A stretch of 63,440 bases of DNA, filler included. It is 10 parts of 10 records of this genome, joined end to end, with 100 filler letters (N's around TTAATTAATTAA, not from the genome) between each part and the next. Parts side by side here need not be neighbours in the genome. Positions count along the whole stretch, not along the records: positions 14,919 to 23,605 come from SRR31147125_259901; 9 more parts are not named here. One strand, 5' to 3'. The notes under the pieces are model-generated. The model ran no database searches. It was not told the origin of the DNA and worked only from the letters and a program-made list of their open reading frames with translations. This document shows, piece after piece, positions 6,267 to 57,401 of the stretch (positions are counted from its first letter, which is position 1; every line of letters starts with the position of its first letter). A program made the translations under genes and the position numbers.

Positions 6267-6366
6267 NNNNNNNNNNNNNNNNNNNNNNNNNNNNNNNNNN
6301 NNNNNNNNNNTTAATTAATTAANNNNNNNNNNNNNNNNNNNNNNNNNNNNNNNNNNNNNNNNNNNN
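6267..6366. other. Artificial contig spacer
   Basis: 44 N + TTAATTAATTAA (stops in all six frames) + 44 N. Confidence 0.99.
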
Positions 6367-6460
6367 TTTTGTCAATCCCCTTGATATCAGATGATTTACA
6401 GACACTGAGCCGGTATATTCCACAGCTAAATTTAATGACGTTTTAAATGCTTTGGAATTC

Positions 6461-9400
6461 ATGACACCAGCCAAACCCAACATACCCGAATCCTCCGTCG
6501 CCATCATCGGAATGGCCTGCGTTTTTCCCCAATCCAGAACCCTCAAGGAATACTGGCACATGCTCCTCAACGGCATTGATGCCATCGGCCCCATCCCCGA
6601 GGACACCCATTGGAAACTGGCAGACTATTTCAACCCGGATCCATCCTGCCCGGATCATACCTATTGCAGCCGGGGCGGGTTTCTCCCCGACATTGTTTTC
6701 GATCCCTTAAGTTACGGCATGCCGCCCAACAACCTCCAGGCCACGGATACTTCTCAGCTTTTGGGCCTGGAAGTGGCAAAACGGGCCTTGGAAGATGCTG
6801 GCTATGCCCCGGGACACCCGGTATTGGAAACCAGCAAGGTCAATGTCATTCTCGGGGTCACCGGCACCCAGGAACTGGTCATCCCCTTAGGCGCCCGGCT
6901 TGGGCATCCCTATTGGAAGCAGGCCCTGGAAGATGCTGGCCTGTCACCGGAGATACGTCAGGATGTCATGGACCGCATCCAGGCCTCCTATCCCCAATGG
7001 CAGGAAAACTCCTTTCCCGGTCTTCTGGGGAATGTGGTGGCCGGCAGGATCGCCAACCGGCTCAACCTGTCCGGGACCAATGCCGTATCAGATGCTGCCT
7101 GCGCAAGTTCTTTGTCCGCCGTTCATACGGCCATCATGGAGCTTCAGTCCGGGCGCTGCGATATGTCCATCACCGGTGGCGTGGATACCCTCAATGATAT
7201 CTTCATGCACATGTGTTTTTCAAAAACAGGGGTGCTTTCCCATACCAGCGATGCCAAGCCCTTTTCCAAGGATGCCGACGGCACTGTCTTGGGGGAAGGC
7301 ATCGGCATGCTGGTCCTCAAGCGCCTGGAAGATGCCCAAAGGGATCAGGACAGAATTTATGCCGTTATCAAAGGCATGGGCACGGCAAGCGATGGCCGGA
7401 CCTCTGCCGTGTACGCCCCTGAACCCGGGGGCCAGGTCAAGGCGCTCACCGACGCCTATGAACGGGCCGGAGTGGATCCCGGCACTGTGGGGCTCATTGA
7501 GGCCCACGGCACAGGAACCCGGGTCGGAGACAAGGTTGAGTTCACCGCGTTAAGACAATGTTTTGAGAATAGTTCTCCCTGCCAGTCCACTGCCATCGGG
7601 TCTGTAAAATCCATGATTGGGCACGCCAAGGCCGCAGCCGGAGTCGCAGGCTTGATAAAAAGCGCTCTGGCCCTTCACCACAAGGTTTTGCCCCCCACCC
7701 TCAAGGCTGGTAAACCAGACCCGGACCTGAACATTGAAACCTCTCCTTTTTACCTCAATGACCAGGCCAAGCCATGGACAGGCCACCGGGGACAGGCCAG
7801 ACGCTCCGGCGTTTCCGCCTTTGGATTCGGCGGGTCTAATTTCCATGCCGTATTGGAAGAGGTCACCCCGGAAAAATCCCATGTTTCCTGGGACGGATCT
7901 GTTCAGATCTTCGCCTTTTCAGGGCCGGACAGCCAAAGGGTAATCCAGGCGGTTGAAAATACAAAAAATAAAATCAGTGAATTTGACAGGGCTGCCAACC
8001 CGGCGGCCTATACCCAGGCCCTTGCCTGGCAGGCTGATCAGTCCAGAGCATCTTTTTCATCAGACCATGAAATCCGCCTGCTGGCCGTCTATTCCAGGGA
8101 AGATGAACTCCATACCCTGCTGGACAATGCCATCGCCGCACTTAAATCAGACACAGCCCCCAAGCCTCCGATTTTCATGGGTAAAGGGCCTGCATCCGGT
8201 AAACTGGGCTTTGTCTTCCCCGGACAGGGCAGTCAATACCCCGGCATGGCCCGGGAACTGATGGCCATGTTCCCCGAAGGGACCCAAGCCCTGGACCTGG
8301 CCTGTGACGCCTTTGCAAAGATCCGCCAGGCATCATCCAAAGAGCCGGAATCCCTCATCACTGCCATGTATCCCCTGCCCGCCTATACCGCAGATAAAAA
8401 AGAAACTGAAAGCCGCCTGCGCCAGACACAGATCGCCCAGCCTGCCATCGGTGCGGTTTCCATGGCCATGACCAATATTCTCAACCGTTTCGGCGTCGCC
8501 CCACAGGTCACCTGCGGCCACAGCTTTGGCGAATTGTCCGCTTTATATGCGGCCCATTGGATGGATGACAGCGATTTTCTCACCCTGTCTGCTGCACGGG
8601 GACATTATATGGCCCAGGCCGGAGAGCAAAGCGGGGATACCGGTTCAATGCTGGCGGTCCAGGCCTCGGTATCTGCCATCACCGCCCTGATTGAAGAAGA
8701 GGGGCTTGACCTGATCCTTGCAAATATCAACAGCCCGGCCCAAGGCGTTCTCTCCGGAAGCACCCCGGAAATCCACCGGGCCCGGGACTGCTGCAAGAAA
8801 AGAAAAATACGGGCTGTCAAGCTACCCGTGGCAGCTGCATTTCACAGCCGCCTTGTGGCTGACGCCGCTCACCCCTTCCAGGCGCTGGTGGCAGAAAAGA
8901 CCATCAAACCGTCTAAAATCGGCGTGCTTTCCAACACCACAGGGTCTGATTATCCCAAAACCCAAGCCGCTGTAAAAGCCCTGCTGGGAGACCAGCTGGT
9001 CCATCCGGTGAATTTCACGGACAATATCCAGGCCATGGCTGACAAAGGGGTCACCGCCTTTATTGAAGTGGGACCTAAAACCGTTTTATCCGGCCTGATC
9101 AGGGCAACGCTGAAAGAGACTGCCGCAAATCCGTCAATAACGGTTCAGGCCATGGATGACCCCGGCAGTAAACACTCGGGTATTTTTGCCCTGGCACAGG
9201 TGCTCAGCAGCATTGCCGCCGGCGGACACCAGGTTGATTTCAGCCCATGGGAAGACCCTGCAGTCAAACCCGTACTTCCCAAAATGGCTGTGATACTCAA
9301 CGGAGCCAATCTCAGACCGGCTCCGGAAACCAGGCCTGCCCTCAAACCACAGGAATCCAAAAATCAAGACGTCAAGACACAAGGATCAGATATGACACCC

Positions 9401-12400
9401 CATCCCGATCTCATGCGGTCGTCTATAAGTCAGACAGACCAGCGCCCCAAAGCACAACAGGTTTTGCCCCAGGCCCCGCCCTGTTCCCCCATGCAACAGC
9501 CCCCTATTCAAGGGGACACCGGCCTGATTCAACAGGGACTTGAGGCCATGCAGCAGCTCCAGGCCCAGACTGCCAGGGCCCATGAGAAATTTTTGGAAAC
9601 CCAGGCCCAGGCCAGTCAAACCCTTGCTCAGATCATGGCCCAAACCCGGGGAGAAGGGGGTGCAACCGTCACCCTTCCAGCCAGCCGGATCCATGCAGGG
9701 GGGCAGCCAAGCCATGAACTGCCGCGAACACCACACCAGCCCATGCCTGCCCCCATACCCTCCCCGGCCCCAAAGGCTGTACCCAAGGCCCAGCCGGCCC
9801 AGACAGCTGCACCTGCCGCTGCGCCTGCCGCTGCCTCACCCAGCCCTGCCGTTCCTGAAGCCGTGTCGGAAACACCGGCTGAGACAAGCACCGGACTACA
9901 CGCCGTCCTCTTTGAGATTGTCAGCCGCCTAACCGGCTTTCCCGAAGAAATGCTCGAACTTCAGATGGATATTGAATCGGATCTGGGCATTGACAGCATT
10001 AAAAAGGTAGAGATCATCTCGGAGCTTGAAAAGGCCCTGCCCCAGGGCACCGGACTGTCCAGTGATCATCTGACCTCCGTCAGAACCCTTGAAGATATCT
10101 GCACCGCCCTGGGCGAAGACGCCCCTGCCGGCCCATCCCAGGACGCTGGCCAGCCGGTATCAGTACCGGTGGACGATGCCGCCCCCCAGACCATGGCGGT
10201 GCTGATCAAGATCATCAGCGACCTCACCGGCTTTCCCGAAGAGATGCTTGAACCAGAGATGGATCTTGAGTCCGATCTGGGCATCGACTCCATCAAACGG
10301 GTGGAAATCCTGTCCCGGCTGGAGCAGGAACTGCCGGATATACAAAGCATATCCCCGGACGATATGGGGACGCTAAAACGACTTGGAGACATTGTCTCCT
10401 TTCTCACCCCAGCCCATGACCCGGCCGCAGACAGCGGACCGGATAAAAAAAACGCCATCTGAAGCCGGGGATGGACAATTAGTTCAAAAATCTTCTGCCG
10501 CAGCCGGTCCCCTGTTGCGGCAGGAGGTTGTCCTTAAACCCTATCCTGTCAATCAGATCCGGTTTTTCAACGGGGCCAGGATTGAGGTGGCTGCCGACCG
10601 CACCGTCTATCTTACCCAGGACACAGCCGGCCTTGCCCAGGCCCTTGCCTCACAGTTTGAAGCCCTGGGCATACGCACCGCGCGTATCACCATGGGCCAG
10701 GACAGTCTCCCGGACATGTCGGATGCCGCCGGTGTGGTTGTATTAGCGGATGCGGGTGACGCCGGAAATGATGATGCGGCCCAGGCATTTCTCTCCCAGG
10801 CCTTTGATCTGGCCAGGGGCGTTGGGACCTCCCTTATGACGGCCGCTGAAACCTGTGGGGCATTTTTCTCAACGGTGACCTTCTTTGGCGGCGCCTTTGG
10901 CTTTCAGGACCAGGATTCTGACATTTCCCCCATATATGGCGGTCTGGCCGGCCTGGCCAAAACCGCTGATATCGAATGGAAAAATGTGCTCTGCCATGCC
11001 CTGGACCTGGCAGCGGATCCAGACCAGTGCAAGGCCAAGGCCGAAGCCATCGTCGCCCTTATGATGACCCATGGTGCGGTGGAAATGGGCATTAAAGAAG
11101 ACCAATGTCTGATTCCCGAATTGCAGCAGCGACAAATTGATCCGGGAACGCCGGACATGGGCCCAAAGGATGTGGTGGTCATCACCGGTGGGGCCAAGGG
11201 CGTCACCTTTGAATCTGCCCTGGCCCTGGCCAAGACCTGCACCCCGAAAATTGCCCTGTGGGGACGATCCCCGGCCGGATATGAAGAACCCAAATGGCTT
11301 GAATCCCTCACCCAGGCCGGAGAAATCAAACAGGGAATCTTAAAAAATGAATTTTTGAATCAAAAACCCAAACCCGCCCAGGTCCAGGAACGATACCAGG
11401 CCATCATGTCCAACAGGGCCATCCGGAAAAACCTTGACCGCATCAGGGCCTTTTCGCCGGAGGTGACCTATGCCTCGGTGGACATCCGGGACAAGGCTGC
11501 TGTGTTGGCCGCCATGCAAGAGGTGACCGATCAGCTGGGACCGGTCACCGCCCTGATTCACGGGGCAGGCGTCCTGGAAGATAAACTGATTGTGGAAAAA
11601 CAGCCCGACCAATTCCAAAAGGTATTTCACACAAAAGTGGGCGGCCTTGCCAATCTCATGGCAGCGATTCCCCATGAGGACCTGCGCTTTCTGGTGCTTT
11701 TTTCCTCTGTGGCCGCGCGGTTTGGAAACCAGGGCCAATGTGACTATGCCATGGCCAATGAGGTGTTAAATAAAACAGCCCAGCACCTGTCCCGGACCCG
11801 GCCCAATTGCCGGTGCCTGTCCATCAACTGGGGCCCCTGGGACGGGGGCATGGTGGACGACAGTTTAAAAAAGCAATTTTTAAGACGGGGCATTGATCTG
11901 ATTCCCCAGGACCGTGGTGCCGAACAAATGGTCAAAGAAATGGCCTCCGGTACCCAGGTTGAAATTGTTATCGGCGCAGGGCTTAAGGCAGAGCCACCGG
12001 AAAAAGCCTTGGTCCTCACCAAAACCATGGAACGAGCCATGGGAGAAAAGGCCTGTCCGATCCTGGCCCATCACCGCATTGATCACCAGCCTGTTGTCCC
12101 CCTGGCCATGATGGCGGATCTCATGGCCCATTCAGCGGAAAAAAACAACCCGGGACTTATCTTTTCCGGCATGGACGACATGCGGCTGCTCAAGGGCATC
12201 CTTCCCGGAGACAGGGAAATGCCCATTGGGGTGGAACTGAGCCGGTGCCTGCCTGAAAAAGGGGTTTACACGGTGTCAGCCAGGCTCTCTTCCGGAAAAA
12301 CAAACAGCCCGCGTTTCCATGCCCAGGGCACCTTGCGCCTCAGGGACAGCCTTCCCAAACCGCCGGTATTGTCCAGGGCCGCGTTTATGGATCTCAAGCC

Positions 12401-14041
12401 TGGCAAGCTAAGCCCGGCCCAGGCATATGACAGCCGCATTTTATTCCATGGTCCGGCCCTTCGTTGTATTGAAGATATAAACGGGGTGTCCGTCAAGGGT
12501 ATCGATGTCATTGCCCGGTGCGGTCAGGGGCCGGACACCTGGTATGCCTCTGCCCATGCCAGACAATGGACCCTGGATCCTTTGATGCTGGATGCTGCAT
12601 TCCAGGCCGCAATTCTGTGGACCTATGAAACCCGGGGTGCCGTCTGCCTGCCCAACGCCTGGGAAAGCCTGCGTGTTTATTCCTCCTATGCGGACTATCT
12701 TGCCTCCGGAAAGGACCGGACGGTCCGCATCATGTTTACTGTCAACCATGACGGTCAGCATAAAATCCAGGGATACTTCACCTTCCTTGACAGCCAAGAC
12801 GTTGTCATTGCAAGCATCATGGGCTTTGAGGCCCTGACCGACACCAACCTTCTGGAAAAATTTAAAAGCCCCCCTATACAACCGGGATAGGATCCTGGCC
12901 TTTGCCCAGGGAAATCCTTCCGAAGCCTTTGGTCCGGAATATGAAGTTTTTGACCGGGAAAGACAAATCGCCAGATTGCCAAGGCCCCTTATTTTTTCAT
13001 GGATCGGGTCACCCGGGCCGACCACCCGCAATGGCAGATGCAGTCAGGCGGATGGATAGAAGCCGAGTATGAAATCCCGGCCCAGGCCTGGTATTTTAAA
13101 GCCAACCGGGCCCAGGCCATGCCCTTTTGCATTCTCCTTGAAATCGCCCTTCAACCCTGCGGCTGGCTGGCGGCTTATGCGGGTTCCGCCCTCCACAGCG
13201 AGGACCGTCTCCATTTCAGAAACCTCGGCGGCAAGGCCAGGTTAAGCCGTAACCCCATCCCCGGGTCCGGCACCCTCACGATCAGAAGTCGAATGACCGA
13301 GGTCTCAAAGGCCGGCGGTATGATTATCCAGGACTTTGATATGCAGGTTTTGAATAACGGAGAAACCATATACCAGGGCACCACCAACTTTGGATTTTTC
13401 ACTGAAGAGGCCCTGGCCAACCAGGTGGGAGTCAGAGCCCCAAAATTCTTCACAAAGCCTCCGGCTTCGGACCAGGGCGTGACCTTTGAGCGATCCGCCC
13501 CGATTACACCCGAGGATCCAAACCTTGATCCGGCCTCGGAATCCGGTATGCCCGCCACAGCCCTTAGGATGATCGATTCTATTGATTTCCTTGATTTTGA
13601 GGGGGGTGCTTTAACCAGGGACTGGTCTGCGGGACCAAAACGGTCAACCCCAAAGAGTGGTTTTTTGATGCCCATTTTTATCAGGATCCGGTCTGCCCCG
13701 GTTCCCTCGGCATTGAATCCTTTATCCAGCTGCTCAGGTATTTTATGGTTCAAAAGCATCAGATCAACGCAGACGCCTATGAAATCAGGATGGGGGAATC
13801 CCATGCCCATCAATGGATATACCGGGGCCAAATCATCCCCTCTAACAAAACCATTGAGGTCCAGGCCCATATCATTTCCTGCGTTCAAACCCATAAGACC
13901 TTTGCCATCTGTGCCTCAGGCGCCCTGGTGGTGGACGGCATATGCATCTATGAATTCCAGGATTTTTCCCTGGAGATGGTCCCTGCCGGCAATGCCCGTC
14001 AAATTGCCAAGACCCGGCAGACAGGCAAGGCAAATGAATAA
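6461..14041 (+). CDS. pfaA: Pfa-like iterative type I PKS / secondary lipid synthase KS-AT-ACP-ACP-KR-DH(PKS)-DH'(FabA)-DH(FabA), split by four apparent homopolymer frameshifts
   Basis: KS: DAACASS, EAHGTGT, IGHAKAAAG. AT: GHSFGE, AAFHS. Two ACPs: DLGIDSIK. KR: ITGGAKGVT, YAMANE. PKS-DH: HRIDHQPVVP, LDAAFQ. FabA-type: WYFKANR..MPFCILLEIALQPCG and (alternative frame) EWFFDAHFYQDPVCPGSLGIE. Frame breaks at A8 10445-10452, C6 ~12869-12874, C4 ~12985 and ~13600-13610. Confidence 0.85.
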
Positions 14042-14046
14042 TTAGC

Positions 14047-14818: not shown

Positions 14819-14918
14819 NNNNNNNNNNNNNNNNNNNNNNNNNNNNNNNNNNNNNNNNNNNNTTAATTAATTAANNNNNNNNNNNNNNNNNNNNNNNNNN
14901 NNNNNNNNNNNNNNNNNN
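14819..14918. other. Artificial contig spacer
   Basis: Same 100-nt N/TTAATTAATTAA linker. Confidence 0.99.
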
Positions 14919-14956
14919 CCCCCTCCTGACTCCTGCCGGACTCCTTTGTGGAATAG

Positions 14957-17900
14957 GTTGGCAACTTGCAACTCTTTGGAACTCAAAGTCGTATAACAAC
15001 ACGCACGGGAGATCTCAAGATCATTGTTCCAAGCGAGGGCGACCTCTTCCTTAGGGGGGTTCAGGCGTTGCACTGTCCACAGGATCCAGTCCCCAAACAG
15101 CCGTCCATCTCGCGGGGGACGCACTTCTGATTGGTGATTTTCTCACGATCACGCAATCAGACTCTACAACACGACTAGACAGTGAAGAAGCTGGTACGTT
15201 TCGGTCCCGGACCGGGAGCATCGTTGCTGAACCTGTCCTTGCTTGCAGTGAGTCTACTCCGTGCACCCCAAGACATCCGCTTCGTTGCAGGGGTACCCTC
15301 CAAACGTCGGAGTGCATCAGAAACCCCTTTCAGCATCGCCATGCGCCTTCAGGGCGGAGACGGGACCACGTCCGACGTAGTCCAAATGGATTCATCGACG
15401 ATCACCTTCGGCGTGCCCGTTACAGCAGGAGGCGGGTTCTTCCGATTCGCGAATGGACTTCTTAATATCACAGGCACCCTGATCGCAAAGACGTTCACAC
15501 CCACATCCCTCAAGGCCACTGAGCTCAATATTGGAGATCTTACGGTCAAAGACAAGACTGTATCCTCCGCCAAGCCCTTCCTTGACCTGTCTGTGGATGA
15601 TGGGAACAAAATTGTCTTCCGTGTGGCGGGCCGGGATACATGGGTCATGGATACCTCGGCAAAGACAACTACCTTTGGCGATGTTCAGTTCTCCCAGGGG
15701 CATATCGTGGTCCACACCCTTGCCTCCTCCGCAGGATCGCGTCTAGTAATGGAAGACGACCGTACCCTGCTCACAGCCGAGACGAAAGTCCTTCTGGAGG
15801 GTACCGACGTTGTTCTCCATGCCCCTGGACGTGTTCGACTTGCAGCATCGGAGGGTGTCCGTATTCAGGCAGGCGATCAGCAAACACACGTGTCAGTGGA
15901 CATGGATGGAGTCTCCCTGGCCGGAACTGTTCAAATCGACGAATCCGTGCAAAGCCGCCAGGGGTATACTACCCTTACCGCGGGAACGGGAGACTTGCTC
16001 TTCAACACACCCCACGGCGTGCTACACGTCAATGCAAGCACGTTGCGTCGAACGTCGAACGACATGTGGTTCAGGGCCGATCAAGACATTGTTCTGCGTG
16101 CAGCCGCAGGTTCCATTCGCCTTCACAAAGCTCGAGATATTCAAATGACCGCTGACACCTTGGAACGTGCGTCTGTGGCTGGTAGTGGACAAACAGGCGG
16201 GAAGACAACCTTCACCGGACAAGAAAGCAACACTGTGGGTGGCGATACCATCCTCCAGGCTGGTTCTGCCACCGAACCCTCTTCCATCCGAGGCGGGAAC
16301 CTGGTGCTGCGATCTGGCGCGGGAGGCACGGGTAGTGGTGCTGTGGGCGGCGATATTCTTGTTGTTGGACAGCCTGCCATTACTCTAAGCGATGTGGCCC
16401 TCATTGACAACACTCAGCTTCTTATCCACGGTGGAAAGAAGGTGGATCTTCGGGGTGCCACCACCATCCTGACGGGAAGCGGGAGTGTGGATGAACTCGA
16501 TATCTCAGGGGGTCTTGTCGTTCGCACCGGTGGTATGGAGGTGTCGGGAGGGTTACAGGCCGACTCGGGAGTCTTTGGTTCGGGGCCCACGACTGTAGAG
16601 GGCGACCTGTCCTTTGAAAGCGGAGCGAGTGTGACAGGGGACCTTCAGGCATCGTCTTCGGTTAGGGTCACAGATGAAGTGAGGACACCGGATGTGCAGG
16701 TCACGTCGGGGGGTGTGGACACGGCAAGCCATGTAGACGTCTCCTCTGGTGGTGTTGAGGTGGCCCACGGCGATGTAACTGTTCACGGAGATGCCTACCT
16801 ACCTCTCCTGATTGACACGCACGGCCCTACCTTCCAAAAACTCTCCATCGTGGATGGGGGCCTCGATGTCGAGGGAGGTGTTCTTGTACACACAGACGGT
16901 GCCAATACCCTAAAGGGTCCCGTCGTTGTGGAGAGTGGTTCGCTTCGTACTACCGGTGGTCTTACCGTACTAGACGGGGGAATGCGCGCGGACAGTCTGG
17001 TTGTCGGACAAGGGGACCTCAGCGTGCCATCCCTCAGTGTCCAAAACACGGGAATGACCGCGAAATCCATGGAGGCTGACACTGCGACCATCACGGGCAA
17101 TGTCCGAGTAGCCGGACCGCTCTCGATTCCCGATACACCCCTGGCGGCTCACTTGGTAGTGGAGCATGGCCTCTCTGTCGGGAGTCAAGGAACCGAAATA
17201 ACAGGCGGCCTTACGGTTCACACCGACGGAGTTGTGGTTGCTGAGGGAGGCATGCGCGTTCGTCAAGACGGTCTCTCTGTTTCTGATGGTGGTATGAACG
17301 TGGCGGGTGGTCTGTCGGTGTCGGGCGGGTCCTTGAACGTGGAAACGGCAACTGTGAACCAAGGGGCAAGCGTGCAAAGTGATGGTGGCCAAGTTATCCT
17401 GGGAGGCGCTGTCGTTCATGGAAATGTGGATATTTCGGGCGGTTTGACCCCAGAAGACATTGTGCGAGGGCGCGCAGTAGTGGGTGAAGTGCACATTGCG
17501 GAGGGTCCTGTTTCCGTATCTCCGGACGGCGTTAAGGTGACGGGTGGTGTTGCCGTCCATGAGGGTGGTATGGTTGTCCATGAGGGTGGTATGCACGTCG
17601 TGGCGGGTGTGGTTGAGGTGCTCACCGGCGAAGGAGTGGACATGAAGGGAGATCTTACTGTTGACGGAGTTTCGATCACGGACGACGGTCTTACGACTCA
17701 AACCGGAATCACCGTGGAACAAGACGGGGTTGCCGTTCACAAGGGCCAACTTGACGTTCTTATGGGCGGTCTTTCTGTGCACGGGGACCTGCTTGTGCGA
17801 AATCCGGGAGACATTACGTTTATCGACGTGGCAGGATCTCCCGACATCATCGATCCCACGACCATGCCGCTCCATGTACGGGGAGGAGCTTCCGTGGCAG

Positions 17901-20900
17901 ATGGTTTGGAGGTACGGGGCGGGGTGAGTGCGTATGAAGGCGGAATCACCGCGATGGATGGTCTACGTGTGCTCGAAGGAGGGATGTTCGTTGAAGAAGA
18001 CGGAGTCGAGATAACGGGTGGACTCACTGTGCACGACGGTCTCCTGAACATTGCTAGCGGTGGTCTCGTTGCACCCTCTGGCTCAGTTATTATTACGGAC
18101 GGTGGACTTGTGATCGAGTCGGGCCACATGCGTGTGGAGGGGGATCTGACCGTGAGTGGCGGGGTTGTTACCCTTCCCGCATCGGTGGCACAGCCACCCT
18201 TCCAGTCCCTAGACATCCAAACAGGAGGTCTTCTTGTTACGGGTGGTATCACGGTGCACGACGGCGGTCTCTCTGTGGAGAAGGGTAGAATTGTCCTGGA
18301 AAGGGACGGCCTTCGCATCGCATCCGACGGTGCCGCAGTTTATGGTGGTCTAACCATTCACGAACCAGGTCTCACGGTGGAATCGTTCCCCATGGCTGTG
18401 TCAGGCGGTGTAACTGTGGCAGAAGGAGCGGTCCAAGTTGCTGGGGACACTCTTGTGCGGGGCGATATAACCCTACGCGGCGGCGAAGTGTCGGGACTCG
18501 ATCTGGGCTCCACCTTTGGTATTGTAGCTACAACGGGCGTCTCTGTGCTGGACGGTGGTGTGGAGGTGACAGGCGGCATCACAGCATACGAAGGTGGTTT
18601 GGTGATTTCGGGTGGTACCTACGTTAAGAAGGACGGTGTGGAGGTCTTGTTGGGGGGGCTTACCGTCAACGGCAATATGGGCTTGTCCGTTGAGAATACC
18701 CTGACTGTGATGGAGGGCGGACTTCACACGAGCCAGGGTATGATTATCGGGGCCGGTGGACTCGATGTACAGAGTGGCGGTGCCCGGGTGCTCGACGGAG
18801 GAATGGCCGTGACCGGAGGGATAACTGTTGTGGGTGGACTCGACTTGCCCGATCGGCCCGTTCTGTTGCGAGTTGAACCTCTTACAGCCCCCACTACCAT
18901 CGTGGTAACGGGCTTTGGTATCGAGGTGACAGGCAGTGTCGACTTGTACGAGGGAGACTTGTCTGTGCAAGAGGGAGACCTTATCATTCATCACGGGCTT
19001 CTCTCAACAGCGAATGAGGGTGTGAGTGTTGAAGGCGGTATCACGGTACACGACGGTGGCGTGCATGTGGAAGAGGGTGGCTTGAGGGTCCTCTCGGGAG
19101 GGCTTCAAGTTCAAGAGGGAGCGTTGGAAGTGCTGTCCGACGAAGGTACCACAGTTCACGGGGATATAGAGGTCCACGGCAATCTTTTCGTGGAGCAAGA
19201 CGGCCCCAGTGACAACGGGTTACGGGTCCTGGGCGGTGCCGAGGTCACGGGCGGGATTACTGTGTTCACGGGTGGTCTTACATCTCAAATGGGCGAGACG
19301 ACTGTGTACGGCGGAATGCAGGTTCACCGCGACGGAATGGAAATCACAGGAGGACTTACTATTCACGACGGTGGGCTGTTCCTTCCCGACGATGACCTGA
19401 CGCTTGAGTCGGGTGACCTTACCGTGGTCAGTGGCGGATTGACTATCTCGCAAGGACAACTGAGTATCCCCAGTGGTGGTCTCCTTGTTGAAGATGGAAT
19501 TGAGCTCACATCGGGCGACCTTACCGTTGTTGACGCCCAATTCTTCATGGTTACGGGCCACATGATAGTGGGCGACCGCTTTTCCGTGGTGGAAGGAGGT
19601 ATTGAAGTGACGGGTGGTGTCTCGGCCTTCGAGGGTGGTGTTCACGTATCGGATGATGTACGTGTATTGGATGGTGGAGCGTCCATTCTGGAAGACGGAG
19701 CCGAGGTGAGAGGGGGCGTGTCGGTGCACCAAGGCGGCCTTCAAATCTTCGATGACGGACTTGTTGTCAGCCATGGAGGTCTTGTGTCCGCAGATACGGA
19801 CCACGGTATCACAATCCACGGTGGTGGACTCGACATCCAGGGTGGAATGGAGGTGGAGACTTTGACTGTAGAGGGGGGACTAGAAACCACAGGCGCCGTG
19901 CGACTTGCGGCTACATCAGGAGTTTCCGTCTCAGGCGGGATCTCTGTTGTGGGAGGTCTGACCGTGTGGGACGGTGGCTTGGAAGTCTTTGAAGGTGACA
20001 TGCTTCTGACGGGACCGGCACAGTTACGCGGAGGAGCTACCATCGATCAGGGTCTGGATGTGGATGAGCTTCGGGTGAACGGGAAGACAGTAATCGATGG
20101 TGATCTGGCTGTCGGGAACGGGGGAATGGAAGTCACGGGAGACCAGCCCCTCCATGTGGGCGCACTTGAAGTCGTCGATGGGTCCTCGTCGCTCGTTCAC
20201 GGAGGTGTTCGTGTTGGCTCGGATGGCAGTGTTATGGGAGGTTTGACTGTCCAAGGCTCTGTTGAAGCTCGTGCGGGTATGGTTGTCCAAGGAGCGGGCC
20301 AGTTCGCTGAGGGTCTCGCTATGGATTCAACACTCCGTGTCCAAGAGGGTGGGCTGGCAGTGACGGGTGGATTGACCGTACACGGCTTCCTGTCGATGCC
20401 GGGCGATATCGACGAGGAGGCTCTCAAGGATGTGAGCTACGGTCTTCTGGTCCTGGAAGGAGGTCTTGAAGTAACGGGCGGAATCACAGCCTATGAGGGT
20501 GGGGTCGTTGTTGCACAGGATGGTGTTCGCGTGGAGAAAGAGGGTGTGGACGTCCGTTCCGGAGGAATCCGCGTTCGTGACGATGCTCTGACTGTGGAAC
20601 ACGAGGGCATTACAGTTGAAGATGGGGATGTCACTCTTTCCTCTCTGCTCAACGCCGAAAATGGGATGCGTGTTGAGGGTGGTGGTCCTCTCGCTGTTTC
20701 GTCCGGTGCAGCAGAAGTCAGTGGCGAACGCATCCAGGCACGGGACGGCATGGATGTACTGGGATCCGGAGGACTGCATGTTGACACAGGAGGGATGGAG
20801 ATTCTTCACCAGGGTGCGGTAACGATCAACGAGGGAGCAATGGTGGGCGATGGCCTGCGCGTGTTGTCTGGTGATCTTGTCGTGGCCTCGGGAGAGGTGC

Positions 20901-23605
20901 GAGTGGAGCAAGGCGGGCTTGACGTATCAGGACAAGTGCTTGTGACGGGCCAGGAGGCAGAACTCCTCGGTGGAGCCGTTGTGGCAGATTCTGTAGCCGT
21001 AGACGGCGTGCGCGCCGACTCTTTGCGTGTCAGTGATGGAATTTTGGCCGTTCAGGGTGGTGATGTTCAAGGAGTATCCAGTGATCTTCGTGTCCTGGCA
21101 CCAGGCTCTCTGGAGGCGGACGACGCGACATTTGATCAAGGGGTCACGGTAACCTCAAGTGCTCACCTTATCGTAAGTGGGGGTCTCGAGGTTACGAACG
21201 GTGGAGTTGAGGTGACCGGACCCTTGGTTGCTGAAGACGGAGTCACCATCCATGGCACAGCAGGTTTGCAGGTCGAGGCAGGTGCAACCTTCCTTGGGTC
21301 TCTTTCTGTGGATCGGCTCGGTGTTCCCGATACGGAGGCCACCGTACAGGGGTCTGCTCGAATCACCGAGGTCGGATCTTTGGATGTGACAGAGGATCTG
21401 GCCGTTTCGGGGGCCTTGACCGTTTCAAGCTCTCAAGGGCTGAGTGTCTCGGGTAGTGGGCTGGACGTTGCATCAGGAGGTGCACTGGTAGAAGATGGAC
21501 TTGGTGTGACGGGTGGCATTACGGTCCAGGGCGGCCTAACTGGCCCTGGCCTTGTTGCTGATTCGTTGATTGTTCGCGATGGCCTGACCGTCCTTTTGGG
21601 AGGAGTAGAAGTGCTTGACGGAAGCGTCGTCATCCAAGGCGGTCTCACGGTGTTGGAGGGTGATGTGGCTGTGGATCGTTTTTGGATCCAGACACCCGGT
21701 CCGCTCACAGTGGACGAAGGCGGTCTGTTTGTAGCCTCTGGGGGCATTGAAGTGACTGGAGGCCTTACGCTGCACGGTCCCATGGAGGTGATGGAGGGTG
21801 GACTCGCAATTCAGTCAGGCGGTGCAAAAGTGATGGAGGATGGTGTTCGTGTCCAAGGAGGATTGGATGTCGGTGCTGGCGGTTCGTTGACACTCCTCGA
21901 TTCGAACCTGGAAGTGGGTGGGGATGTGTACGTGTCCAGCCAGTTGGAGGTTTGGAGTCCTGCGTCCCAGGTTGAGGGATCGGTGTCTATCTCCGGGGGA
22001 CTAACTGTTCTGGGAGGCGATATCGACTCTCCGAATTGTTGTACGTTCACAACTGTGGGGATCCTGGTGACCGGAGGCCTCTCTGTGACGGATGAGGGGA
22101 TTGCCTTACCGGTGGTCTGAGTGTTCTGGAAGGTGGAATCCACATTGTGGAAGGAGGCCTGGAGACTCTGGAAGGGCTTGCCTCGTTTGTGGATGGTCTG
22201 GAAGTGTCGGGCGGTATCATCGCTGACTCTGTGGAAATCCTTGGCTCGGATTCGACCGTTGTGCTTGAAGACGGACTCACTCTCTCCCAATCAACACTGA
22301 CGGTACCTGGTGGCATAATGCTGGACGACGTGGACGGTGTGAATGCCCTGCAGGGTGTCGACGTTCACGGAGCGAGTTCCGTGCAAGACGGAGGGGTGGC
22401 GATCCGCGATTCGCTGACCATTCATTCGGATGGACTTGACACAATGACCCTGAGTATTCAAAGTGGCGGCCTTGTCGTAGACCACGGCGGAGGGGTTGTG
22501 TTGGGTGGAATGGAGGTCAAGGGTGAGACATCATTCACGGGCGGATTGGTGGAGGTAGATGGTGGATTGGTGGTGGAAAGCTACGGTCTTGCTGTGTTGG
22601 ACGGGGATCTTACTGTGTCGGGTGGACTTGGTGTCCTCATGGAGGGACTTCACATTTTGGACGATGGGTGGACAGTGATGGGTGGACTCACCGTTTGGGA
22701 GGGTCCCGTGGTCCTCGAGGAGGATATGGACGTGGTCAGTGGTGGACTGAGTGTTACAGGAGGGATGATCCTTCACGACGGAGGTTTGACCGTATCCACA
22801 GGAGGTGTTGTCCTTCACGGTGACGTCGGACTGGACGTCGGACTGGACGTGGAGGGTGGGATCACAGTTCTGCATGTCGGTGTTTCGGTAGAGGAAGGTC
22901 CCGTGGAAGTCACGGGCGGTGTTGTTGTTCACACGGAAGGTGTTAGCATCCTTGCGGACGGCGTGCAAGTGACGGGAGGTATTACGGTGCATACGGACGG
23001 TGTAGATGTCCTGGATTCCGTGTCCGTGGGCGATGGTCTAGAGGTCCTCGGTGCACAGGTATCCGTCCATGAAGATGTATCCGTACACAGTACGGAGGGT
23101 GTTGGAGTGACTGGCGTTCTTTCTGTGGGCACAGGCCTACGTGTGGAGGAGGGTGGCGTGGAGATGACAGGTTCCCTGAGTGTGGATTCAGGCTTGATCA
23201 CCGCCACTCATCTGTCGCTGGATGTCGGTATTGGTGTATCAGGCGGGGTGACAGTCTATACGGACGGACTGGATGTGGATACCCTGCACGTTGAGGAGGG
23301 AATCCGCGTTTTGTCGGATGGACTTTCTGTAACAGGTGGTCTAACAATTCATTCCGGAGGACTTGATGTTTACACGGACGAGACGGTTCATGTGGCGAGT
23401 GACCTTCCGCTGGGATCCCTGCCCCTCACCGCGGGTGCGATTCAGGCATCCGGTTTGGACACAGGAACCAATTCCATTTATGTGGGCGGGATTGTGAGTA
23501 CGGGTGATATTGATGGGACAGCAGCCTCCCTGCAACTTGGCACAGGTTCTCTGCTGGCCGGTGGTGGAATTCATGCCACAACCGGATCTTTGACCACAGG
23601 TACAA
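14957..23605 (+). CDS. Giant eukaryotic Gly/Val-rich beta-repeat (fibre/spike-like) protein, >2800 aa, partial at both ends
   Basis: An exon starts after TAG at 14956 (VGNLQLFGTQSRITTRTGDLKII...). A 55-nt intron at 15194-15248 (GTACGT..GCTGAAC..TGCAG) joins EEA to VSLLRAPQDIRF in the frame of the 2312-aa ORF. Single-base shifts occur at ~15054-15059 and ~22104; the second restores LTGGLSVLEGGIHIVEGG into the 504-aa ORF. There are hundreds of GG[LIMV]xVxx 6-7-residue repeats. Confidence 0.75.
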
Positions 23606-23705
23606 NNNNNNNNNNNNNNNNNNNNNNNNNNNNNNNNNNNNNNNNNNNNTTAATTAATTAANNNNNNNNNNNNNNNNNNNNNNNNNNNNNNNNNNNNNNN
23701 NNNNN
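23606..23705. other. Artificial contig spacer
   Basis: Same linker. Confidence 0.99.
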
Positions 23706-29064: not shown

Positions 29065-29164
29065 NNNNNNNNNNNNNNNNNNNNNNNNNNNNNNNNNNNN
29101 NNNNNNNNTTAATTAATTAANNNNNNNNNNNNNNNNNNNNNNNNNNNNNNNNNNNNNNNNNNNN
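29065..29164. other. Artificial contig spacer
   Basis: Same linker. Confidence 0.99.
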
Positions 29165-29244: not shown

Positions 29245-32200
29245 CTACACACCTTTGGAGCAATCATCCCCCTCGTAGCCGTAATCACACACACATTGTC
29301 CGTCTTTGCATGTTCCATGTTTCGAGCACTCGTTGGGACACAAAACATGCGAACAATCCTCCCCAGCGAAGCCCTGGGCACAGAAACAACGCTTGCTCAC
29401 ACAGACACCATTTCCGGAACAGTTGTTCTTGCAACCGACGTCGAGCGGATGCTGGCAAGCATCCCCAAACCACCCCGTATCGCAGGCACAATATCCCGCA
29501 GAACAGACTCCATGCTCCCCACAGTTGTTGGGACACTGCTCCGGGTGCCCCACAGAGCAGTCAGGTCCCACAAATCCTGCATCGCACACGCAAACACCAT
29601 CAACACATCGTCCACGGTGTGAACAGTTGTGAGGACACTCCCGTTCACACTCCAGGATAATGTACGGGATAGAACAGTCCTCGCCCTCAAAGCCCACGTC
29701 ACAGGAACAGTATCCGTTGATGCACTCCCCATGGGACGAACAGTCTCGTACACACGGATGAGTGGAAAAGGGTAACTGCATAACATCCAGAGAACAATTC
29801 AGACCCACGTAGCCTCGATCACAAGCACAGTGGCCTTGGAGACAGGGACCGTGTTCCAAACAACCATCTGGACATTTCAAAGATGCTTCAGAAACCGTCT
29901 GCGTCATATTGGTGTTCTGCCAGAAGGTGCCGACCACATCGCACACATCCGGAAGCTGTGTCCCGTTGCACCAGTGGGTTCCGTTGTGACCCTCTGTACG
30001 ATTGCATACGTTGGGAAGGATGGCGGTATCATTGGCCACAAGGGTATGGTTCGGGTGCAGCACGGAAGGGGCCATCGAAGGGACCACCGAAGGAACTGTT
30101 GGCACGCGGGAGGAAGGGGGAGACGGATTCGAGGAGGGAACAGGAGAAGGAGGAGACAGCGAGGGAGTTGGACTCGGTCGCTCAAAGTAGCGTGAACAGT
30201 CGGTACCTAGCCATCCCGGCCGACAACTGCACACTCCCTCAATGCATTCCCCGTGGTGAGAGCAGTTGTTCGGACACGACAGTGGCGACGACGGCCGTTG
30301 AGGTGTTGTTGTTGGCTCGCCGCCCGCTGTTGGAACGGAACGAACATCAACCAAGTTGTAGCCGAGTACTTTGTGTGCCTTTCCTTCTTCGAAAGCTCGT
30401 AGTGTCCTCCTGTAAATTCCGCGTGCTGTCAGGAACCGTACGACTGTTGTCTCGTAGCCGTAATACTCCACATTGCCTGGGTAGATGGAAAGGATTTGAA
30501 TTAATCCGGCGAGATGCCGAGGATTCCCGCGCAGATGATTGAAGGCATCCCCACCACCCAGGGCCAGGACTGCTTGAAGGGCTTCCTCTTCCGTGTGTTC
30601 CGAGAGGGCCACACCCATGGGGACATCAAATACCATCTCAAAGGCAACAAGTTCCGCGTCATTGGGCTCCGGACACTCGGGTGTATGGGTCTCCAAGGGT
30701 AGACTCTCCACAGACCGTTGACAGGCCACGCCCGTATATCCTTCGTGGCACTCGCACACGCCCAAGGTACATGTGCCGTGGCCACTACAGTCCAGAGGAC
30801 AGCGAAGCGTGGAACAGTCGCCCCCGGTGTACTCGGGAGTGCAGAGACACGTTCCATCCGTCAGACATGTTCCATGTCCTGAACAGTCACCGGGACAGCT
30901 GTTCTGTCCCGTGAATGTCTCGTGTGCGGCCATGTGGATATCAACAACGGGGTACTCGAGCACCTTTGTCAGGTGTCCTTGATGGAAGGCCGTTTGAAGC
31001 TGGCTGTACACGAAGGGTTCACTCCGGAATACAACAACTGCTGTCTCCTTGGGTCCTGGAAGGATGTCTTCGAGTTGAAGATGCTTGCCGGTACCCGCGA
31101 ATTTGTGCACCGCATGCTGAAGTTTCAGTGCGGTATGGGATGAAAAGGGTTGATGAGGTGGAACACGAAGAAGAATCGCAAAGAGGACCGTGTCAACAGG
31201 TGGCTCAACCCCGTATACCACACCTCCCTCAACTCGATCCGCACAATCCGGACCGTAGTAGGCCGCTTCGCAGGAACAGGCACCACTGATACATGTGCCG
31301 TGACCCGAACAACCGTTGGGGCACTCTGCCTCGGAGCAATCCTCCCCAGACCACCCAGAGGCACATGCGCAAACGCCTGACCCGGTGCAGTTGCCATGTC
31401 CTGAACAGTCGTTCTTACACACAGTACGAGAACAATCGCCACCCTTGAAGCCAGGATCGCACGCACAACCTTCCGGCACACAGTGTCCGTGTCCAGAGCA
31501 CATATTGGGGCATTGACAGAAGTCGCCCGTGAAGTCCTTGAAGCAGTGACAGCGCTGGAAGAGGCAGAATCCGTTTCCACTACAATTGCGGGCACAGGTG
31601 ATCTGGCCACAATCATCTCCCAGGTAGCCGTCCTTGCACTGGCACACACCCTCCACACAGGCACCGTGACCAGTGCATCGATTGGGACATATCTTCACAC
31701 TGCAATCAGGTCCTTCCCAATCGGGTTTGCACAAACAGTGATCCACTTCACAGACTCCATGGCCCGAACAGGCATTGGGACAGCCCGATACATCACAGCG
31801 AGCACCCTCCCAGCCCTCGAAGCACATGCATGTGCCGTCACGACAAACACCGTGATCGCATCCACCCACACACAGGGCACGGGAACAGTCGTCTCCACCC
31901 CAAGCCGAGTCACAATAGCAGCGCCCGAAATGACAGCTTCCATGTCCGGAGCAGTCCTTGGGGCAAGAGGCGGTTTGACTGCAATCGTTCCCCGTGTAGC
32001 CAGTGTAGCACAGACACGTGCCGTTTTCACATCTTCCGTTGCCGGAGCAGCCATTGGGACAGTAGAACTCAGAGATCTCCATGGAACAGTCCAGACCGCC
32101 ATACCCCTTGAAACAATAGCAAACTCCATTCTCACACGTTCCCTGACTGCTGCATCCGTTGGGACAGTATGCCACGGTCGCACAATCGTCACCGCTATAT

Positions 32201-33154
32201 AACGATGAACATTCGCACATTCCCGTCACATCATTGCATGTTCCGTGTCCCGAGCAATGATTGGGACAGCGTGGATGGGAGCAGTTCTCTCCCGTCCATC
32301 CCACTCCACACAGGCACACTCCCTCGGCCACACACTCGCCGTGTCCGGTGCAATTTCCTGGACAATGGAGACGGCAGTTGTGGGCACAGGAGGCCCCAAC
32401 GTATCCCTCGTCACACAGGCATGTGAAGTTGCCCTTGGCTCCTTCCAGGCATCTTCCGTGTCCTGAGCACCCTTGAGGACAGAGTTGCACCTCGCACGCC
32501 TTTCCTCCATATCCGACGTCACAGAAACATTGACTTTCCACGCATTTTCCGTGTTCGTTGCAGTTATTGGGACAGCCCATCTCGATTGAGCAGTCCTCTC
32601 CTGCAAACCCAGCAAGGCATTGGCACACACCCGCTTCACATCTTCCGTGAGAACCTGCACTCAAACGATGAGTTGCTTTTTCCTCGTTCCTACACCCCTC
32701 GAATAAGACGTACTGCAGCCATTAGGACACATATCCTGATGACTCGTGCGTTGGTCACACGTCAAGCCGGCAAACCCTGGGTCGCAGTAGCAGTCTCCTT
32801 CAATGCATTGACCATGTCCTGAGCAGTCATTTGGGCATGTCTGTACCACAGAAGAAAGGGGAAGGGGTTAGACGGACCGAACGCGGGTAAGGAAGGGAGG
32901 ATGGAGGTTCCCCTCGTTTTGACACGTTCCCCACTCAACACAGAACCCTCCCCCCACACATCCCACACACAAGGGAACAGAAGAAGTGGATGTAAACATA
33001 AAACCATACGAGAAGGACTCCAAACGAGTGGGGGTGGAGGGGGAAGACGTACCGAATGAGAACTCAACACTTGCGTTGCACGGGTTGCTTCTGCTACCAG
33101 GGGTATTATCGTGACAAGCACGACAAACACAACCGCCACCACGACACGTGTCAT
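29245..33154 (-). CDS. Secreted tenascin-type EGF-repeat protein (about 25 repeats), eukaryotic, probably continuing past contig end
   Basis: Exon 1, 33154-33053, encodes signal peptide [23 protein letters not shown]. Introns at 33052-32841 (GTACGT..TCTAAC..TACAG) and 32713-32655 (GTACGT..TGCAG) splice in frame to CPNDCSGHG and CPNGCSSHG. Repeats follow CPxxCSxHGxCxxGxCxCxxGxxGxDC. Likely donor GTGTGT at 29252. Confidence 0.88.
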
Positions 33155-34265: not shown

Positions 34266-34365
34266 NNNNNNNNNNNNNNNNNNNNNNNNNNNNNNNNNNN
34301 NNNNNNNNNTTAATTAATTAANNNNNNNNNNNNNNNNNNNNNNNNNNNNNNNNNNNNNNNNNNNN
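34266..34365. other. Artificial contig spacer
   Basis: Same linker. Confidence 0.99.
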
Positions 34366-39638: not shown

Positions 39639-39738
39639 NNNNNNNNNNNNNNNNNNNNNNNNNNNNNNNNNNNNNNNNNNNNTTAATTAATTAANNNNNN
39701 NNNNNNNNNNNNNNNNNNNNNNNNNNNNNNNNNNNNNN
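39639..39738. other. Artificial contig spacer
   Basis: Same linker. Confidence 0.99.
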
Positions 39739-46039: not shown

Positions 46040-46139
46040 NNNNNNNNNNNNNNNNNNNNNNNNNNNNNNNNNNNNNNNNNNNNTTAATTAATTAANNNNN
46101 NNNNNNNNNNNNNNNNNNNNNNNNNNNNNNNNNNNNNNN
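46040..46139. other. Artificial contig spacer
   Basis: Same linker. Confidence 0.99.
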
Positions 46140-47738: not shown

Positions 47739-49456
47739 TGAATACTCCTCTCAGGATCTCCGCAGGACGCCCCCAGGCGGATGGTTACGGCAGTAGACTC
47801 TTCCTCCGGGGAGAAGGCCAGTCCCGCTTCGTCCCCGTAGTAGAGCTTCAGCCGCCGGTGTACATTCCTCAGCCCCACGCCTTTCCGGCCTTCCAGGGCC
47901 TGCTCCCAGAGCTCTTCCGTCAGTCCGCCGCCGTTGTCCCGGACTGTCAGCCGGGGGGATCCGCTTCGCCGGTGATGAGGATCCGCCGGTCTCCGGTCAG
48001 CTTCTCCAGGCCGTGGATGACCGAGTTTTCCACCACCGGCTGAACAATCAGCCGGGGAATCTCCCGGCCCAGGAGGCCCGGATCGATCCGGATCTCCCAG
48101 TTGAAGTTTGCCCCGTAGCGTATTTTCTGTATCTGAAGGTAGCCTTCCACCAGTTTCAGGCTCTGTTCCACCGTGGTGAACTCCGCTTCCGAATCGATGG
48201 AGTCCCGCAGAAGTTTACCCAGCTGGGTCACGATGGTCGTGATGTCCTCCACCCCGTGGAGCTTGGAAAGGGCCTTCACGGTGTTCAGGGTGTTGTAGAG
48301 AAAGTGGGGGTTGATCTGTGACTGGAGGGCCTGGCGTTCGGCGGTCCGCAGGGCCTTTTCCCGTTCCACCCGGGCTTCCAGAAGAGTCCGGATACGGGAG
48401 GCCATGCTGTTGAATCCGTGAAAGAGGATCTCGAACTCGTCCTCCTGGAAATCCTTCACCCGCACGGTCAGGTCGCCCTTTTCCATCTTTTTCATGGCAT
48501 CCACAAGGACCGTGACCGGGTGGGTGATCGCCCGGGCCAGGCCGAAGGCCATCAGGGAGGAGACGATCAGGCCCATCACGGAGATCATCAGGATCATCCG
48601 GGAGAGGGCCGCCAGGTTGGTGGTGACCGTACCCAGACGGAGCGTCCCCGCCAGGGTCAGTTCCTCGGGATAGAGGGAGGCGTAGGCCACCAGGGTTTCC
48701 CCGGAGGTGAGAACCCCCGACTCGCCCCGGGGGATCTGCCACCCCAGGCCGGAAAAGTTCCCGTACTCCCCCTCCCGGAAGAGGCTGACGAATTTGTAGT
48801 TGATATTGTCCAGAAGGTAGATATCCGTAAAAAAACCCGCATTGATGTTCTCCAGGGTTTTTCCCAGGAACTCTGTATTCAGGTCCGTGATGATGAATCC
48901 CTTGCGGCCTTCGGGAGATTCCAGCATCCGGAAGAGGGAGAGGGCGACCCGGTCGCCCTTGGGACTGGCGAAGCTGTCCACCATGGGGAAGGTCTCCCGG
49001 TTCCGTTTCAGTTTCACATAGGTTCCCAGGGAGTGCTCCGAGGAGTTGGGGTTGTATCTGTCCGGAATCATATGGGTGGAGTAAATCCGGTCTCCTCTCT
49101 CCGACCAGATGGATCGAGGCGTCTTCGATGCTGCCCCACAGTTCTCTGTACAAGGTCTGATAGAGCAGGGACAGCTCCTCTTTGGCCGGCTTCTCCGGAG
49201 CGAACAGGGCGCGGGTCACTTCATCCCTCCGGGACAGCCGGAGGGCCGCCTCCCGGTACTCCGTAACGGTCGTATTCATCCGGGCCACCAGGAGTTCCAT
49301 CCGGCCGGCGGACTGGTCGCTGTAGGTGTCTTCGATCAGACGGGAGGAGAAAAGGACGGTAAAAACGCCGAGAAGGATCACCTGGATCAGGCCTGTCAGA
49401 AGGAGGGACAGAAAAATACGGGTGAGGAAACGGCGGGGGGGCAGGCTGTTGAACAT
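47735..49456 (-). CDS. Sensor histidine kinase, YesM/LytS type, two frameshifts (~49100, ~47955)
   Basis: N-terminal TM, HAMP, LQSQINPHFLYNTL, QPVVENSVIHG, and in the shifted frame VRDNGGG and GVGLRNVHRRLKL. The stop overlaps the regulator ATG (ATGA). Confidence 0.87.
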
Positions 49457-52008: not shown

Positions 52009-52108
52009 NNNNNNNNNNNNNNNNNNNNNNNNNNNNNNNNNNNNNNNNNNNNTTAATTAATTAANNNNNNNNNNNNNNNNNNNNNNNNNNNNNNNNNNNN
52101 NNNNNNNN
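52009..52108. other. Artificial contig spacer
   Basis: Same linker. Confidence 0.99.
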
Positions 52109-57301: not shown

Positions 57302-57401
57302 NNNNNNNNNNNNNNNNNNNNNNNNNNNNNNNNNNNNNNNNNNNNTTAATTAATTAANNNNNNNNNNNNNNNNNNNNNNNNNNNNNNNNNNNNNNNNNNN
57401 N
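57302..57401. other. Artificial contig spacer
   Basis: Same linker. Confidence 0.99.

Follow-up and report, generated by a model that had tools for sequence, protein, structure and literature searches.

The window analysed here, a stretch of 63,440 bases, is made up of ten contigs joined end to end, and one entire contig (positions 14919-23605, 8687 bp; SRR31147125_259901) is occupied by part of a giant gene. We consider it probable that this is a fragment of a nuclear gene from a unicellular eukaryote that encodes a secreted, homotrimeric beta-helical fibre, folded by an intramolecular chaperone (ICA) domain and ~150-200 nm long if fully intertwined. Three-chain beta-helical shafts with a self-cleaving C-terminal chaperone have long been regarded as phage hardware, with the animal protein MYRF as an odd exception. 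The chaperone in question, Peptidase_S74, is the ICA domain of endosialidase and of phage tail spikes.

Structure of the gene and its repeat

As deposited, the plus strand of the contig carries an open frame at 15179-22117 (2313 codons) and, in a different frame, another at 22096-23604 (503 codons); over the whole contig the plus frames hold 110, 73 and 30 stops and the reverse frames 51, 55 and 124. The contig was compared with two public runs from one sample of one study, X1 (0.90 of the sampled words) and X2 (0.27). X1 showed single-base differences from the contig at three places only, together with two inserted G and one skip of 55 nucleotides (nt). The first additional G lies behind 15053 and turns the G-run at 15054-15059 into seven G (depth 12), and the second lies behind 22102 (depth 25), at the one-base gap (22102-22103, plus strand) that divides the frame into the two deposited open reading frames (ORFs). 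The skip, a joint 15192>15248 (cut +1) in one X1 contig of depth 12, omits exactly 15194-15248 on the plus strand, a 55-nt stretch with GT..AG ends (GTACGT ... TTGCAG) that has the form of a spliceosomal intron and introduces stops if retained. When the three changes were applied by script, 8596 nt and 2865 codons with 0 stops were obtained, in a frame that runs from 14957 to 23605 and is open at both ends; omission of any one of them gave 84 (with the intron left in), 122 or 26 stops. A preliminary description, made from the letters of the window, had proposed a single frame of more than 2800 residues from 14957 onwards, open at both contig ends, with an intron at 15194-15248 and two single-base shifts, and all of this was recovered independently in X1.

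The contig begins with the pyrimidine-rich 3' end of an upstream intron (14919-14956, plus strand) that closes with AG at 14955-56, where X1 has a loose end. The X1 contig in question carries 155 different letters before 14955 and matches the window from there on, and its upstream letters continue the exon frame from 14957 without a stop (30 letters read). The first coding exon on the contig therefore joins an upstream exon in frame; it spans 14957-15193 on the plus strand and includes the G-run with one G fewer than in X1. At the other end, one X1 contig (record 8) continues for 208 nt past 23605. In the two leftmost bins the X1 depth was 9.81 and 1.36, as expected from the single spliced contig of depth 12, and X1 thus behaves like cDNA at these places. 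The main caveat on the word "spliced" is that the run type of X1 is only guessed ("DNA?"); X2 had zero cover at the intron and at both indel places, and there was no RNA run among the two. The contig is best read as an internal gene fragment with at least two spliceosomal-type introns, in which both frame breaks are one-base gaps of the deposited assembly. In practical terms this is a caution, as two such gaps break a 2865-codon gene into two ORFs.

Two other candidate introns were rejected. A second, very short intron at the G-run was set aside, the break being accounted for by the one additional G in X1. An X1 joint 19618>22969 with GT..AA ends (skipping 3350, side 23, depth 43.8) was taken as repeat-driven or as a paralogue contig; together with X1 loose ends at 19581 and 22991, it hints that the source has more such genes.

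The 2865-residue frame is rich in Gly (18.7%), Val (14.5%), Leu (10.6%) and Asp plus Glu (13.1%), with less than 4% Lys plus Arg, a net charge of ~ -262, an isoelectric point (pI) of 4.2, 3 Cys and 2 N-glycosylation sequons. Downstream of the intron, it starts with an irregular, strand-rich region of ~410 residues (15249-16489, plus strand) with 9-14% Gly per 200-residue window. This is followed by a repeat array of ~2,300 residues (16490-23394, plus strand) built from 6-7-residue units of the form Gly-Gly-h-x-h-x(x), where h is hydrophobic, and by a final 70 residues (23395-23605, plus strand) in which the periodicity is gone and no stop is reached before the contig ends. The repeat period is ~6.7 residues: the Gly autocorrelation has maxima at lags 6, 7, 13, 20, 26/27, 33 and 40 and falls smoothly, from 0.28 at lag 7 to 0.22, 0.17 and 0.15 at lags 13, 20 and 26. 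A strand-turn motif, defined as Gly and then two hydrophobic residues with one residue between them, occurs at 196 places, chiefly at a spacing of 7 (n=62) or 6 (n=41). The array thus contains h-x-h strand repeats with inward residues one apart, as a triangular prism needs, and it is interrupted by Pro-containing breaks at intervals of 150-350 residues. The dominance of Gly, Val and acidic residues in short strand-turn units, which had been noted from the letters alone, is therefore borne out by composition, autocorrelation and motif counts. At the DNA level no long tandem arrays were found, with Tandem Repeats Finder giving 5 trivial rows only, and the dispersed copies of the repeat are 60-87% alike; the array is therefore an old protein repeat and not satellite DNA, as previously proposed.

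Family searches with the contig protein (P0001) gave nothing above cut-off in Pfam and no significant match among PDB sequences (best E 1.4). Neither P0001 nor the second ORF had a Pfam or NCBIfam match to Fil_haemagg, pertactin-type, two-partner secretion (TPS) or beta-barrel signatures, or any match to Peptidase_S74, for which no credible motif was seen elsewhere in the window either. Bactofilin (PF04519) gave no Pfam match at E<=1, and Atlas searches returned weak leads only, such as a bactofilin feature lead of 0.84-0.85 for the N-terminal part. Among Pfam families, Sarcoglycan_1 (PF04790) alone touched the N-terminal region, at residues 119-236 with 17.1 bits and E 0.0036, below the 32.5-bit gathering cut-off. 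We treat this sub-threshold match as a possible lead only. In the extracellular tower of the sarcoglycans, the homologous beta, gamma and delta chains are described as intertwined in a triple-stranded beta-helix similar to phage tail fibres (PMC13478489).

Relatives and their gene neighbourhoods

An exhaustive HMMER search with residues 1-1200 against 1.84 billion representatives returned 98 proteins at E<=1e-3, of which 34 reached E<=1e-10 and 3 reached E<=1e-30, the best relative being P0003 (E 1.2e-52, 32% identity). The best stretch of every relative begins at query residue 587 or later, so relatives exist for the repeats only. A word-indexed search with residues 1-700 found nothing, and the N-terminal part used as query had no match among metagenome loci. 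A word-indexed search with the last 308 residues found P0062 alone (1.3e-9), and the extended 3' end was not found. A phmmer search with the N-terminal 430 residues against 126 proteins (the 98 hits and their cluster mates) gave nothing significant. When one protein set was searched with a reversed query, with three shuffled queries and with the real query, only the last gave hits (112 against 0), which demonstrates that the similarity exceeds composition or period and is direction-specific.

A C-terminal Peptidase_S74 domain was present in 58 of the 98 relatives (18/28 plus 40/70), and teneurin-type epidermal growth factor (EGF) domains were found near the N-terminus in 32 (18/28 plus 14/70). 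Fil_haemagg matched weakly in five relatives (P0008, P0026, P0030, P0081 and P0084). The name of the sequence told the organism for 4 of the 30 clusters looked up, and all four were Picozoa single-cell genomes (EukProt). Four proteins of the Picozoa type (P0007, P0008, P0070 and P0094) show a differing architecture on the same repeat: blocks of Gly/Val repeats alternate with modules of ~150 residues that contain several Cys and a conserved F-x-W-R-K-C stretch, and neither EGF nor S74 domains were found in them. Another three (P0078, P0080 and P0088) are weak matches, E 2.5e-5 to 1e-4, that look unlike the other relatives. The domains of P0078 and P0088 are a DUF4097 toastrack and LptD_N with a "beta helical trimerization domain", and DUF6519 with S74, while P0080 is short, with a hydrophobic leader, simple T-S-G-N/L-T repeats and no Pfam match. 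The repeat type thus grades into beta-helical proteins of other domain contexts.

A profile of ten relatives (A3) had matches in at least 458 JGI metagenome loci and at least 422 IMG/VR loci, and 80 of each were kept. With the repeats of the contig protein as tblastn query, three of the 80 metagenome loci matched (L001, 9e-66; L002, 3e-19; L003, 4e-12). The first holds a complete gene for a protein of 1376 residues, P0119, whose repeats align to those of the contig protein with 32% identity over 886 residues. Its hydrophobic leader is followed by an EGF region rich in Cys and by ~800 residues of GGLTV-type repeats; after an S-S-D-K-R-L-K site come the ICA domain and a short tail. A second Peptidase_S74 gene lies on the same locus (L001 4360-5994, minus strand), convergent with P0119, tail to tail, and the family is thus found in local clusters.

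The relative on L002 is surrounded by genes for V-ATPase subunit d, HECT, Der1, EF-hand and Apg6/Beclin proteins, an N-acetylglucosamine (GlcNAc) transferase and APC8, and no capsid, packaging ATPase or integrase was found among the 14 scanned ORFs of at least 219 residues. This is a compact eukaryotic nuclear neighbourhood. Together with the X1 joints and with named relatives that come from Picozoa only, it agrees with the earlier view of an intron-containing eukaryotic gene. The family's genes can accordingly be spliced nuclear genes, as on the contig, and are able to sit amid housekeeping genes, as on L002.

Fold, alternative readings and the rest of the window

The A3 profile matched the stalk-plus-ICA structure of MYRF (7dc3) at 6.4e-12, and also the phage tail-fibre tips 6f45 and 8jov. 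The last repeat unit of the relatives aligned with the 7dc3 stalk segment immediately before the cleavage site. P0119 also matched phage tail-fibre PHROGs, of which phrog_8215 and phrog_18186 were reached via ~460-520 residues that include its repeats. The preliminary description had called the protein phage-fibre-like, and the PHROG matches of P0119 and the frequent S74 domain of the relatives point the same way. The MYRF stalk is described as a triangular prism with hexapeptide repeats, in which the sheets are formed by strands of three subunits and the core residues are one apart, and cleavage by a Ser-Lys dyad takes place once the ICA domains are trimeric (PMC8326128). A 2025 preprint reports a solved three-chain beta-helical fibril from pond water, TLP-12 (CryoSeek), with six residues per triangle side, and traces its origin to giant proteins of alveolates that have an ICA domain at the C-terminus (bioRxiv 10.1101/2025.09.30.679562).

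As both gene ends are missing from the contig, we infer the trimer and the ICA domain from the relatives. The protein would have at least 2865 residues, with ~410 irregular beta residues followed by ~2,300 residues of Gly-Gly-h-x-h strand-turn units, and by homology with the relatives it would enter the secretory pathway and carry a C-terminal Peptidase_S74 ICA domain encoded beyond the contig end. This domain would trimerise, the three chains would then fold, C-terminal part first, into a beta-helical shaft of triangular form, and the ICA domain would afterwards cleave itself off at its Ser-Lys dyad. The resulting fibre, extracellular or on the cell surface, would be stiff and very acidic. 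With one layer per unit (0.48 nm), or with the 14 nm per 216 residues of TLP-12, 2,300-2,865 residues would correspond to the proposed fibre of ~150-200 nm.

The strongest competitor keeps the same gene and family. Here each chain would fold alone into a three-sided solenoid with ~20 residues per coil, and the rods, ~55-70 nm long, would be monomeric or joined near the C-terminus only. An ordered beta-solenoid had been expected in structure predictions, and one was indeed obtained when AlphaFold2 (AF2) was run on a single chain of residues 1225-1544 (18854-19813) with a small alignment (A2) of internal repeats and two relatives. The model had a mean predicted local distance difference test score (pLDDT) of 75.8 and a predicted template-modelling score (pTM) of 0.74, with three-residue strands each 6-7 residues. 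Its best structural matches by VIA-align were single-chain beta-helices, namely Vag8 (7akv_G, Z 22.4, root-mean-square deviation 2.9 Å over 282 residues), pertactin (2iou_H, Z 21.8), EtpA (8vba_A, Z 21.7) and phage tailspike bodies, and the weak Fil_haemagg matches in five relatives point in the same direction. The likeness of the predicted model to autotransporter and TpsA passengers is a resemblance of fold and not family membership, and Foldseek found no match to the repeat model in the PDB at E<=0.001. The solenoid is weighted below the link to the ICA domain, because an intertwined trimer is out of reach of a one-chain prediction, which is biased towards the single-chain form. In addition, the smoothly falling Gly autocorrelation has no additional peak at one coil, and the repeats of the relatives pass directly into the ICA domain and can be aligned to the three-chain stalk of MYRF. 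We therefore regard the single-chain solenoid as unlikely, though as the main structural alternative. A three-copy prediction of residues 1225-1544 scored 0.00 against a mark of 0.32, in a run in which the prepared alignment was not in use and the chain's own fold was uncertain, and so counts neither for nor against a trimer, and a one-chain AF2 model of the first 560 residues made with no alignment was unusable (pLDDT 38.5).

Several observations weigh against the homotrimeric, ICA-folded fibre. The AF2 monomer is a fairly confident predicted single-chain three-sided solenoid, with a topology unlike that of an intertwined trimer. Identity to the best relatives is ~32% and limited to the repeats, and the first ~410 residues are without a relative. 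The contig protein has no PHROG, NCBIfam or Pfam family match, and the contig, from which both gene ends are missing, shows no ICA domain, EGF domain or signal peptide and only three Cys. Among the relatives, 40 of 98 are without an S74 domain, many of these being fragments. Finally, if X1 turns out to be a DNA run, the joined form would be present in DNA and would be no proof of splicing.

Alternatively, the gene could be viral rather than cellular and encode the fibre of a eukaryotic virus or of a viral element integrated in the genome (a polinton-like virus, a virophage or a giant virus). Modular fibres that reach 3.9 thousand residues and end in a Peptidase_S74 domain are described for polinton-like viruses of many protists (PMC12220804), and S74-bearing relatives detected by the A3 profile are numerous in IMG/VR. 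However, in contrast to the three metagenome loci, none of the 80 IMG/VR loci matched the repeats (tblastn E<=1e-5), and the contig protein itself had no match in IMG/VR or in 50,697 phage records. The introns of the gene and the housekeeping neighbours of the L002 relative argue further against a viral origin, which we consider improbable. Least probable is that the gene is a pseudogene in decay, or that the contig is a contaminant with a bacterial adhesin gene, in which case the frame breaks would be real and the "intron" a coincidence: the twice-broken deposited frame, the bacterial-type genes on other contigs of the window and the adhesin-like fold model would fit it, but X1, an independent read assembly with 3 base differences, has the intact, spliced form with the intron gone at its exact GT..AG ends, the chance that three changes jointly give 2865 open codons is negligible, and the closest relatives are eukaryotic.

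The other contigs of the window give a mixed picture. Each of the ten is ~5-8.7 kb long, and they are separated by spacers of the form N44-TTAATTAATTAA-N44 at 6267-6366, 14819-14918, 23606-23705, 29065-29164, 34266-34365, 39639-39738, 46040-46139, 52009-52108 and 57302-57401. GC content ranges from 0.44 to 0.63 across the contigs and eukaryote-like and bacteria-like genes are intermixed, and the window may come from a bin of mixed origin or from a contaminated single-cell assembly. An ORF of 1139 residues at 29245-32664 (minus strand) consists nearly entirely of teneurin-type EGF repeats (EGF_TEN 2.2e-150; 23 EGF_Teneurin stretches), the type seen at the N-terminus of the relatives, and it could be another secreted protein from the same organism. 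A set of genes resembling polyunsaturated fatty acid (PUFA) or polyketide synthases was found at 6452-14045 (plus strand), with a ketosynthase-acyltransferase-acyl carrier protein (KS-AT-ACP) ORF at 6452-10462, a ketoreductase-dehydratase (KR-DH) ORF at 10383-12890 and a FabA-like ORF at 12999-14045. The first two overlap in different frames, which may reflect a further one-base assembly gap. On another contig, an ORF at 47947-49071 (minus strand) with His_kinase (PF06580) and HAMP domains encodes a bacterial-type sensor kinase.

Comparison with known systems

The closest counterparts of the contig protein are the uncharacterised P0119-type proteins of picoeukaryotes (also P0003 and P0102), which combine an EGF region, GGLTV-type repeats and a C-terminal Peptidase_S74 domain. 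No description of a family with EGF, repeat and ICA regions was found in a literature search that lay outside the supplementary candidates of 10.1101/2025.09.30.679562. Common to the contig protein and the P0119 type are the Gly-Gly-h-x-V-T unit, the giant size (relatives of up to 2,701-2,917 residues), the nuclear setting and the introns. In contrast to the P0119 type, the fragment shows no EGF or ICA domain, both of its ends being missing, and its N-terminal region of 410 residues has no relatives. The fragment is also far more acidic, as its net charge of -262 and pI of 4.2 compare with charges of -113 to +47 in ten relatives, and the outward repeat positions hold Glu, Asp and His where the relatives have Thr, Ser and Asn.

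If the proposed fibre is real, it would carry a net charge of ~ -260 per chain and near -800 per trimer, almost without Cys or sequons. Such a filament could be used as a cell-coat hair, as an adhesive or prey-capture filament or as a cation-binding scaffold, and it could be among the protein fibrils of natural waters that still lack a source. More tentatively, and with less than even confidence, we hypothesize that the contig protein and its relatives offer a first view of a distinct class of cellular surface fibres derived from phage tail fibres in marine picoeukaryotes (Picozoa and other compact genomes), which would consist of a ~200-nm acidic triple beta-helix with a self-removing chaperone and would serve in such roles.

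The stalks of MYRF (7dc3) and of the phage endosialidase endoNF (3GW6) consist of hexapeptide-type strands in a triangular three-chain prism placed immediately before a Ser-Lys self-cleaving chaperone, and the units of the contig protein have the h-x-h pattern of the MYRF stalk. These stalks have few layers (4-6 strands per side in MYRF), compared with ~350 units here, and MYRF is a cytoplasm-facing membrane transcription factor and not a fibre; moreover, there is no ICA domain on the contig.

TLP-12 and its candidates, such as the 19,853-residue Amoebophrya protein A0A8J1ZHD7, are described as giant eukaryotic proteins that form three-chain beta-helices with ~6 residues per side and have an ICA domain, and TLP-12 itself as a strict dodecapeptide repeat, G-S-x-x-S-x7, in which two Ser of each repeat are heavily O-glycosylated (10.1101/2025.09.30.679562). 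The contig protein instead has mixed 6/7-residue units with acidic residues in place of the conserved Ser, and no sequence match between the two was seen. A strict 12-residue repeat of the TLP-12 type (Gly1, Ser2, Ser5) was not found in it, the autocorrelation at lag 12 being <=0.08 and a motif spacing of 12 occurring only rarely (n=8), and no conserved Ser position was seen in the translations.

The fibres of polinton-like viruses are likewise described as large, modular proteins of up to 3.9 thousand residues, found in protist genomes and capped by the same chaperone, with laminin-G, collagen or adenovirus-fibre modules and encoded in viral elements (PMC12220804). The gene on the contig differs from these in its introns, in relatives that lie amid cellular genes and in a repeat that 0 of 80 viral loci match.

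Accordingly, the statement that the protein belongs to no characterised family holds for the repeat itself but not for the kind of protein. The machine type is already known from MYRF, endosialidase, TLP-12 and viral fibres; what is new is the type of repeat, the extreme acidity and an N-terminal region that has no relatives. The contig and its 98 relatives would thus represent a second repeat type of TLP-12-like design, unrelated in sequence, in other unicellular eukaryotes, and they make testable what role such fibres have on protist surfaces and how frequently phage fibre modules have been taken over by cells.

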